The notes under the pieces: generated by a model | What the model was told of the DNA's origin: nothing | The model's database searches: none | The model's input: the letters and a program-made list of their open reading frames with translations, nothing else | Made by a program: the position numbers and the translations under genes | Source: a virus | Taxonomy: Duplodnaviria > Heunggongvirae > Uroviricota > Caudoviricetes | Strand: one strand, 5' to 3' | IMG/VR virus record: IMGVR_UViG_3300031992_002114 | Coordinates: 1 to 64,000 of that record | Length of the DNA stretch: 64,000 nt | Part shown: positions 34,398 through 35,439 of the stretch, in pieces | Layout of the letters: each line of letters opens with the position of its first letter | How positions within the stretch are numbered: position 1 is the first letter of the stretch

Positions 34398-34655
34398 ATG
34401 GCAATGCTTGGATTAGAAGATTATCTGTGTGAAGCATGTAAGCATTTTGATACAGATGGAAGTGATGGAAATCATCCAAATTGTGCTAAACAATTTTTTA
34501 GTGGTAAAAAACGGCATTGCGCTATCAGAATAGGTGAGAAATGTCCTTATGGTTTTGAATTTGGCATACCAGCTGGATATCCTGTAAGTATGAAACGCAA
34601 TCGTGAAAGAGCATATGAAATTGCGCATAAGATTGGAATTAAAATAGATGAATAA
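34398..34655 (+). CDS. small Cys-rich protein
   Basis: Listed ORF. Confidence 0.45.
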   Translation: MAMLGLEDYLCEACKHFDTDGSDGNHPNCAKQFFSGKKRHCAIRIGEKCPYGFEFGIPAGYPVSMKRNRERAYEIAHKIGIKIDE

Positions 34656-35439
34656 GTGAAATAAATGAGCAGCTATATCATTGATTATAGCTGCTTTATT
34701 AATATTTGTATATCCTACAATTAAATTTATAAATACAAAACAATATCAATATACTTATATAGAACAATCTCAAAATATAGATAATAAAGAACAACAATTA
34801 GTAAATGCAGTTGAATATAATAAATTATTAATTAATAATTATCAAATTAATAATACTAATATGGGTGGAAAAGATGAAACAAATGATGATATAATTATTC
34901 CTGACCTTGATTCGCAAATATTAGATTATAAAGAACAATTAAATGAAGTAATTACAGTAGTTGAAATTCCATCTTTAGGAATTGAAATGCCAATTTTCCA
35001 CGGAACTGATGAAGCTACTTTAGCAAAGGGAGCTGGTCATGTAGATTATACTGCTTTACCTATTGGTGGAATAAATTCAAGATGTGTGATAGCTGGACAT
35101 TCTGGTATGCGGAATGCTGAAATGTTTGATAATATTAGAAAATTAAAAATAGGAGATAAAATACTTCTTCGTACTCTTGGAGATGTATATTGTTATTCTG
35201 TCTGTCAAATAGATGATATGGTAGAACCAGAAAAATTAGAAGAATTGATTCAACCAATAGAAGGAAAAGATTTAATTAGTTTATTTACTTGTACTCCTTA
35301 TGGAATTAATTCTCACAGATTGGTTATTACTGCGGAAAGGGTGCCATTTGTTCAAAATGACAACTCTTTACAGTTTAAAGATAACAGTAGTTATTTATAT
35401 TTAATTATTCTTATAATAATTATTATATTTATAGTATGA
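34648..35439 (+). CDS. srt: sortase-family transpeptidase
   Basis: With TGA read as sense the start is ATG 34648 (MNKWNKWAAISLIIAALLIFVY, N-terminal anchor); catalytic region VVEIPSLGIEMPIFHGT...CVIAGHSG...LISLFTCTPYGINSHRLVITAERV. Confidence 0.7.

Follow-up and report, generated by a model that had tools for sequence, protein, structure and literature searches.

A TGA-recoded class C sortase gene and a shaft-type pilin gene in a large tailed phage

Sortase-assembled pili are regarded as bacterial organelles of colonization and virulence. Phages of the gut that read TGA as a sense codon (genetic code 4) are also known and include the clades Jade, Sapphire, and Agate; in such phages, recoding affects the structural and lysis genes, and early genes use the standard code (Borges et al., 10.1101/2021.08.26.457843). 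The notion that recoding acts as a timer of late gene expression comes from the same work, which mentions neither a sortase nor a pilin. Here, we describe a sortase gene in a large tailed phage from gut or rumen with a genome of approximately 150 kb, of which a stretch of 64,000 nucleotides (hereafter the window; positions 1 to 64,000 of the IMG/VR record IMGVR_UViG_3300031992_002114) was analyzed. A preliminary description of the window had proposed a phage-encoded sortase whose start is found only when TGA is read as sense. As judged from sequence comparison, positions 34648-35451 are an intact gene for a class C, pilin-polymerizing-type sortase, and a gene for a shaft-type pilin is present in the same genome (Table 1).

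In a Pfam search, the phage protein matched the Sortase family (PF04203) with an E value of 1.4e-25. With the NCBIfam class C model (NF033745, class_C_sortase), it scored 186.2 bits against a cut-off of 160, whereas class D and class E models gave 65-72 bits against cut-offs of 140-165. The class C alignment covered profile positions 2-220 and began at residue 10 of the sortase; thus, an N-terminal helix is expected by the profile itself. His151, Cys215, and Arg224 were invariant in two homolog alignments and were aligned with the catalytic residues of the solved structures 2xwg and 8t28. The sortase assignment of the preliminary description therefore held, including the catalytic region LISLFTCTPYGINSHRLVITAERV, which is in frame with the His region VIAGHSGM upstream of it, and the class that it had left to be assigned is class C by the above score. 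The closest solved relatives were all pilus-specific sortases, for example SrtC1 of Actinomyces oris (E = 9.5e-38). The stop-free part of the open reading frame (ORF) was modeled with AlphaFold, and the model, with a predicted local distance difference test score (pLDDT) of 87.3 and a predicted template modeling score (pTM) of 0.85, comprised a long N-terminal helix, a β-barrel, and a C-terminal helix. The best 44 PDB matches of this model were all class C enzymes, ahead of any class A or E sortase, with target-normalized template modeling scores (TM-scores) of about 0.8, and these matches reached over the class C N-terminal and lid region with approximately 200-220 aligned columns.

The reading frame from 34648 is ATG AAT AAG TGA AAT AAA TGA GCA GCT…, which gives MNKWNKWAAISLIIAALLIF with TGA as Trp and MNK-stop-NK-stop-AAISLII… under the standard code. 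The longest standard-code ORF at this locus runs from TTG at 34681 to TGA at 35437-35439. As had been proposed, two TGA codons have to be read through for the start, which places MNKWNKW and the following helix in frame at 34648. The previously assigned end at 35439 did not stand, because the third in-frame TGA (codon 264) is also sense; reading past it adds 12 nt and gives W-K-T-R (…FIVWKTR) before a TAA that ends at 35451. The product under code 4 is a protein of 267 amino acids, MNKWNKWAAISLIIAALLIFVYPT … LISLFTCTPYGINSHRLVITAERV … YLYLIILIIIIIFIVWKTR. All three TGA codons were conserved across four genomes, codons 4 and 7 being the same in the relatives L001, L002, and L006, and codons 7 and 264 aligned with TGG-encoded Trp residues of a standard-code homolog (P0003). 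L001 and L006 also encode the K-T-R tail, with the synonymous codon ACA in place of ACT and another stop codon. An 85-codon gene precedes the sortase gene in the window and in L002 and overlaps the sortase ATG, whereas this gene is absent from L001 and L006, in which an unrelated upstream sequence closes with GAGG located 5 nt 5' of the ATG. Identity between the two upstream arrangements starts precisely at the ATG at 34648 and is complete over the 31 nt that follow, a stretch that contains both TGA codons. The 85-codon ORF itself (34398-34655, + strand) is Cys-rich, and the boundary of this indel coincides with the sortase start codon.

In the alignment, homologs uniformly had a charged N-terminus, a helix of approximately 18 residues, and a YP motif, as well as a C-terminal helix followed by basic residues. 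By this comparison, the phage sortase has the complete class C architecture only when each of its three TGA codons is translated as Trp. The ratio of nonsynonymous to synonymous substitution rates (dN/dS) of the gene was 0.25-0.30 against the informative relatives L001 and L006, indicating purifying selection, and 0.42 against the near-identical L002. We also observed an 11-bp hairpin (34667-34696, + strand) that begins inside the second TGA and carries the alternative TTG start in its loop. The 91-nt region containing it had a folding z score of -3.0, with 2 of 200 shuffles folding equally well, and the sole difference among the relatives was in the loop. This hairpin may just reflect the near-palindromic coding sequence of AAISLIIAAL.

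The phage origin of the sortase gene, also part of the preliminary description, was borne out by its surroundings. PHROG matches in the window included a portal, a large terminase, a homing endonuclease, a sigma-like factor, tail fibers, and a reverse transcriptase; 25-26 transfer RNA (tRNA) genes were located between 53022 and 60734, and related sequences of the phage were found in IMG/VR. The late genes contained 54 in-frame TGA and 20 TGG codons, their stop codons were exclusively TAA or TAG, and none of the 13 counted late genes ended in TGA. Full-length profile matches of the portal and terminase crossed in-frame TGA codons, and the tail-fiber genes were likewise rich in TGA. When codons were compared with those of two related IMG/VR contigs, 47 TGA sites were conserved and 12 had changed, 10 of them by exchange between TGA and TGG and two between TAC and TGA. 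From these comparisons, TGA is clearly a sense codon in the late genes of this phage, and we infer that it is read as Trp. The block at 23768-42099 without the sortase gene had a single TGA and 62 TGG codons, again with only TAA or TAG as stops, and the sortase gene had three TGA and no TGG codons (Fisher p = 8.7e-5). The sortase gene is therefore a recoded island inside a standard-code block. It is the last of three genes behind a promoter match, following ORFs at 34069-34365 and 34398-34655, and a terminator-like hairpin follows its stop codon. With regard to the spread of recoding, a window gene at 23768-24517 (+ strand) that is otherwise free of TGA has TGG at three positions where L001 has TGA, which suggests that recoding is still spreading among close relatives.

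The phage also encodes a tRNA with the opal-suppressing anticodon UCA, tRNA(UCA), which carries A1-U72 and G73, as does the phage's own tRNA-Trp(CCA) at 57800-57873. L003 and a more distant recoded phage, L007 (7633-7728), have this tRNA as well, with compensatory changes in every stem, extra arm included. Two other decodings were considered. Selenocysteine came into question since ARAGORN labels tRNA(UCA) as "SeC" and a hairpin follows the second sortase TGA, and was rejected because the tRNA has a 7/5 rather than an 8/5 cloverleaf, TGA is common in the late genes, and TGA and TGG interchange. Charging with Ser, suggested by the long extra arm, was disfavored because of A1-U72 and C2-G71, the resemblance of the acceptor end to that of the phage tRNA-Trp, and the TGA-TGG exchange pattern. 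A long extra arm was also present in a 91-nt tRNA-Ile(UAU) (60484-60574, + strand), and neither this tRNA nor tRNA(UCA) is of a class II type.

An LPXTG substrate elsewhere in the window had been noted as a partner of the sortase. A six-frame motif scan under code 4 detected one convincing sorting signal, LPSTG-ENGIYLYYVIGACLLVGGILIVIAS-KKSKK…, in the ORF at 60814-62622, which substantiates that partner, with its hydrophobic stretch and basic tail, and refines it to a shaft-type pilin. The ORF has a good Shine-Dalgarno sequence and a signal peptide (MKARKWIMIMAFLWLALITGG…AYA), and four of its codons are TGA, two within the signal peptide (codons 6 and 14) and two elsewhere. The protein matched GramPos_pilinBB (PF16569), SpaA (PF17802), and Gram_pos_anchor (PF00746) in Pfam and the isopeptide-forming fimbrial domain and LPXTG anchor models in NCBIfam (TIGR04226 and TIGR01167), all over the cut-offs; on the SpaH/EbpB major-pilin model (NF033902), it scored 83.9 bits, under the cut-off of 95. 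An alignment of 36 pilin sequences had invariant K306, Y309, P310, K314, D349, N426, K452, E526, and N556 in addition to LPxTG. Such a set of residues would be expected from two intramolecular isopeptide bonds together with an E-box and a single spare interdomain lysine. The E-box reads LKEIKAPQGY and contains the invariant E526; the canonical YPK is absent, and the invariant K306 lies in TEK-AF-YP. We consider K306 a candidate linking lysine, and K314 probably forms a predicted intramolecular isopeptide bond. In an AlphaFold model of the pilin (pLDDT 81), four β-rich domains were seen in addition to a signal helix and a C-terminal helix. Each of the top 50 PDB matches of this model in Foldseek was a shaft or basal pilin from a pilus built by sortases, with PilA, EbpB, LrpA, CppA, SpaD, RrgB, and BcpA among the top matches. 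The pilin gene, which is conserved in the relatives of the phage, lies directly 3' of the tRNA array, is flanked by two terminator-like hairpins, and had a dN/dS of 0.19, indicating that it is under purifying selection too.

We then compared the distribution of the two genes. Four near relatives of the sortase had 87-97% identity, followed by the standard-code homolog P0003 at 50%, which has an LPLTG protein encoded upstream and whose own gene ends in TGA, and then by sequences at about 40%. No close relative or prophage copy of the sortase was present in representative bacterial genomes of 185,579 species (one genome each). A tblastn search of 50,697 phage records with the sortase returned only 15 weak matches, none above 41% identity and most of them on short contigs lacking annotation, and megablast of the 20 kb around the gene against GenBank phages returned no match. 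In PHROGs, the sortase had two weak matches of "unknown function", and no family was matched by the pilin. Pilin homologs formed about 45 clusters with 45-64% identity over the full length, several of them on contigs of 130-176 kb. One pilin-bearing contig, L007, is phage-like and TGA-recoded and has the same 96-nt tRNA(UCA). Another, L008, is phage-like and uses TGA as a stop codon; it encodes a tRNA(CUA) at 8349-8424, and its pilin gene adjoins genes for peptidoglycan-binding proteins. The L008 pilin was 39% identical, and none of the 13 checked L008 genes ended in TAG. L008 may thus be TAG-recoded, in which case differing recodings would occur within one pilin-bearing phage group.

Taking these results together, we propose that the class C sortase and the shaft pilin would build a covalent pilus on a monoderm host late in infection, under the control of the suppressor tRNA, and we regard this proposal as fairly probable. 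That the host is monoderm had already been suggested and is a sound inference. Because the sortase gene follows a sigma-70-like promoter match within a block of standard-code genes, its transcription could be early. Its mRNA would then be made early, with ribosomes halting at codon 4 as long as the tRNA(UCA) of the phage has yet to accumulate. The sortase and pilin would subsequently be co-produced late and either inserted into the membrane of the monoderm (Bacillota-type) host or exported across it. By established sortase biology, Cys215 would cut LPST|G, giving a thioacyl intermediate that the next pilin would resolve through one of its lysines, K306 being the candidate, to extend a covalent fibre, and a housekeeping sortase of the host would finally join the fibre to peptidoglycan. 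The phage might profit if infected cells adhered or aggregated, so that new hosts would be close by at burst, or if receptors were masked. A stronger form of the proposal is that one class C sortase and one shaft pilin, both opal-locked in their export signals, make up a minimal pilus-building set that is self-sufficient in a virulent TGA-recoded phage, such that the pilus would appear on the infected Gram-positive cell only after the code switch; we advance this form tentatively, giving it somewhat less than an even chance.

Several observations weigh against a phage-made pilus, and some of them suit another reading. In the alignment, the phage sortase lacks the lid motif DP[W/F/Y] that is canonical for class C enzymes; in its place is DN.GLGG…(L/E)DY with the invariant Tyr94 (DN.GLGG…LDY in the phage sortase), which is common to a subgroup of metagenomic homologs (P0003-P0011). 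The best sortases in the representative bacteria, from Clostridia, Coriobacteriia, and Corynebacterium, were only 35-45% identical. The two genes are 26 kb apart and do not form one operon, and no second LPXTG protein, tip pilin, or base pilin was found in the window and the approximately 16 kb beyond it (about 80 kb in total), that additional sequence containing only thymidylate synthase, gyrase, ligase, and recombination genes. In the pilin-bearing contigs L007/L054 (31 kb) and L008 (22 kb), a sortase gene was not found within those stretches, the syntenic site ahead of the metallophosphatase gene included, and so the sortase may be dispensable or a recent acquisition. The promoter and terminator of the sortase gene are consensus matches, the long extra arm of tRNA(UCA) is unusual, and the residue inserted at TGA is assigned from comparative evidence. 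One could thus suppose that the sortase is recoded and real and makes no polymer, either anchoring or processing the LPSTG protein as a monomer or acting on host LPXTG proteins to remodel or disable the surface, for example in superinfection exclusion. The single LPXTG substrate without minor pilins, the loss of both the DPW lid and the YPKN pilin motif, and the apparent lack of a nearby sortase in phages with a homologous pilin would fit such a role. However, the sortase scores above the class C cut-off and far under those of classes D and E, its top structural matches are all pilus-specific, and the substrate matches shaft pilins over three domains and has an invariant free interdomain lysine and an E-box. 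Moreover, in Corynebacterium diphtheriae and Bacillus cereus, one major pilin with its class C sortase suffices for fibres. We consider this monomer or host-directed role unlikely, though it deserves to be kept in mind.

Lysogenic conversion had been named as a possible function in the preliminary description and turned out to be a poor fit, since both genes need the opal suppressor of the phage. In this reading, the two genes would be cargo by which a prophage gives its lysogen an adhesive pilus. Pilus islands are often mobile, and the moron-like layout of the sortase gene, with a sigma-70-like promoter match before it and its own terminator after it, would agree with such cargo. Each gene, however, has a TGA within its first 14 codons, so that a lysogen using the standard code would require a suppressor for their translation; no integrase turned up among the scanned proteins, and the 185,579 representative genomes contained no prophage copy. 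Classical lysogenic conversion is accordingly quite improbable. If the TGA codons were instead true stops, the locus would encode a truncated enzyme (TTG at 34681 to TGA at 35439) or be a decaying pseudogene. The 252-codon standard-code ORF does span the entire catalytic domain, but its product would retain only some 10 hydrophobic residues and have neither a charged N-terminus nor a basic C-terminal tail, unlike all homologs. Conservation begins at the ATG at 34648 and not at the TTG, the three TGA codons are kept in four genomes under purifying selection, and TGA is clearly sense elsewhere in the genome; there is thus very little to be said for true stops. The other function suggested earlier, decoration of the virion surface, also fits poorly; here it would consist in covalent attachment of the pilin-like protein to virions. 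Phage particles are known to bear Ig and CnaB domains like those of pilins, and the pilin gene is near tail-fiber-like genes. Tailed-phage virions assemble in the cytoplasm, whereas both proteins carry export and membrane-anchor signals that place catalysis outside the membrane, and the pilin matches no PHROG structural family; we regard decoration of virions as scarcely credible.

Table 1. Positions in the window of the sortase gene, its functional parts, and the features connected with its expression and substrate
Feature	Position	Strand	Remarks
Sigma-70-like promoter match, TTGGCA - 17 nt - TG-TATAAT, 11/12	34006-34034	+	Consensus match only
Class C sortase gene	34648-35451	+	267 codons with TGA as Trp; stop TAA 35449-35451
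Two in-frame TGA, codon 4 (34657-34659) and codon 7 (34666-34668)	34657-34668	+	Lys-rich segment preceding the membrane helix
N-terminal signal-anchor helix (WAAISLIIAALLIFVY), then conserved YP motif	34666-34713	+	Alignment, NCBIfam profile, and AlphaFold model
Catalytic His151 (CAT), motif AGHSG (His region VIAGHSGM)	35098-35100	+	Invariant column; aligned with 2xwg and 8t28
Catalytic Cys215 (TGT), motif LFTCTP	35290-35292	+	Invariant column; aligned with solved sortases
Catalytic Arg224 (AGA), motif NSHRL	35317-35319	+	Invariant column; aligned with solved sortases
C-terminal membrane helix (YLYLIILIIIIIFIV), then Trp264 (TGA 35437-35439) and basic K-T-R tail	35386-35448	+	Alignment and model
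Intrinsic-terminator-like hairpin (14 bp, 35451-35483) and T-run	35451-35493	+	Directly 3' of the sortase stop; kept in L001 and L002
tRNA with anticodon UCA (opal suppressor), 96 nt, long extra arm	54115-54210	+	Normal 7/5 cloverleaf
Shaft-type pilin precursor, 602 amino acids	60814-62622	+	LPSTG sorting signal from 62497

Other features of the window were observed as well. A full-length ROOL RNA (Rfam RF03087) lies inside the tRNA array at 58141-58788 (+ strand) and scored 297.6 bits, the gathering score being 99.1. The window also encodes a TROVE/Ro60-like protein (PF05731) at 38013-39464 (+ strand) and a homolog of RNA ligase, recognized by synteny with L006, at 26500-27489 (+ strand). The TROVE protein had more than 760 homolog clusters, many on contigs of 125-160 kb, and this distribution suggests that a very large clade of phages has a module for RNA repair or quality control. 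An 803-amino-acid protein (27727-30138, + strand) conserved in L006 contains the shoulder (PF11978, 3.3e-22) and repeat (PF17795) domains of the Major Vault Protein. A reverse transcriptase gene (45800-46879, + strand; phrog_1423, 2.3e-40) is located directly 3' of a tail-fiber-like gene (43068-45347, + strand), a layout typical of a diversity-generating retroelement. The exchanges between TAC and TGA, that is, the non-TGG changes at TGA sites, were confined to this tail-fiber-like gene. In addition, the genes for the portal and the large terminase are separated by an inserted homing/HNH endonuclease gene with one in-frame TGA (3830-4267, - strand).

TGA recoding, class C sortases, and shaft pilins are each known already, and the pairing of a sortase with a pilin in such a phage appears undescribed: literature searches found no published description of a phage sortase-pilin pair, nor did we find one for the combination of a phage's own pilus polymerase and subunit, a recoded-island sortase in an early block, and TGA codons in both export signals. 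A phage supplying both polymerase and subunit would add a new class of phage auxiliary function in gut and rumen Bacillota and would offer a concrete test case for the idea that stop-codon recoding times late gene expression. If the stronger form of the proposal is true, it would represent a form of phage-directed host-surface remodeling not described before and a natural case of code switching that times a membrane or secretion pathway. Because gene calling with the standard code strips the membrane-targeting parts of the sortase, such genes will be mis-annotated or missed in viromes. Furthermore, the presence of the shaft-pilin family on many phage-like contigs of 130-176 kb, with no PHROG match, suggests that the phenomenon is broader than one genome.

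The phage resembles the code-4 phages of Borges et al. in its large genome, tRNA array, and opal suppressor tRNA, in its standard-code early and replication genes, and in its TGA-rich structural genes, in which TGA aligns with Trp; one relative may instead be TAG-recoded. It differs from them in having a lone recoded gene within a standard-code block. With known class C sortases (SrtC of Clostridium perfringens, 6IXZ/7D6T; SrtC1 of A. oris, 2XWG; SrtA of C. diphtheriae, 5K9A), the phage enzyme shares a common fold, the His-Cys-Arg triad, a TLxTC-type motif (FTCTP), an N-terminal signal anchor, a C-terminal membrane helix, and a pilin substrate in the same genome. Unlike them, it is encoded by a phage, with TGA for all three Trp codons; it belongs to the DN.GLGG…LDY subgroup without the DP[W/F/Y] lid motif, has at most about 45% identity to any sortase in representative bacterial genomes, and is encoded 26 kb from its substrate rather than within a pilus operon. 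Its presumed substrate, in turn, is like the shaft pilins PilA of Streptococcus sanguinis, EbpB/EbpC of Enterococcus faecalis, LrpA of Ligilactobacillus ruminis, CppA of C. perfringens, SpaA/SpaD, RrgB, and BcpA in having a signal peptide, an E-box, CnaB/SpaA-type domains with conserved Lys/Asn/Glu-Asp isopeptide positions, and an LPSTG sorting signal that has a hydrophobic stretch and a basic tail behind it. It departs from these pilins in its additional N-terminal domain of approximately 110 residues, in an invariant lysine before YP (TEK-x-x-YP) where the YPKN motif is absent, in scoring 84 bits where the cut-off of the SpaH/EbpB subfamily is 95, in the TGA-encoded Trp of its signal peptide, and in the occurrence of its family on phage-like contigs of 130-176 kb.

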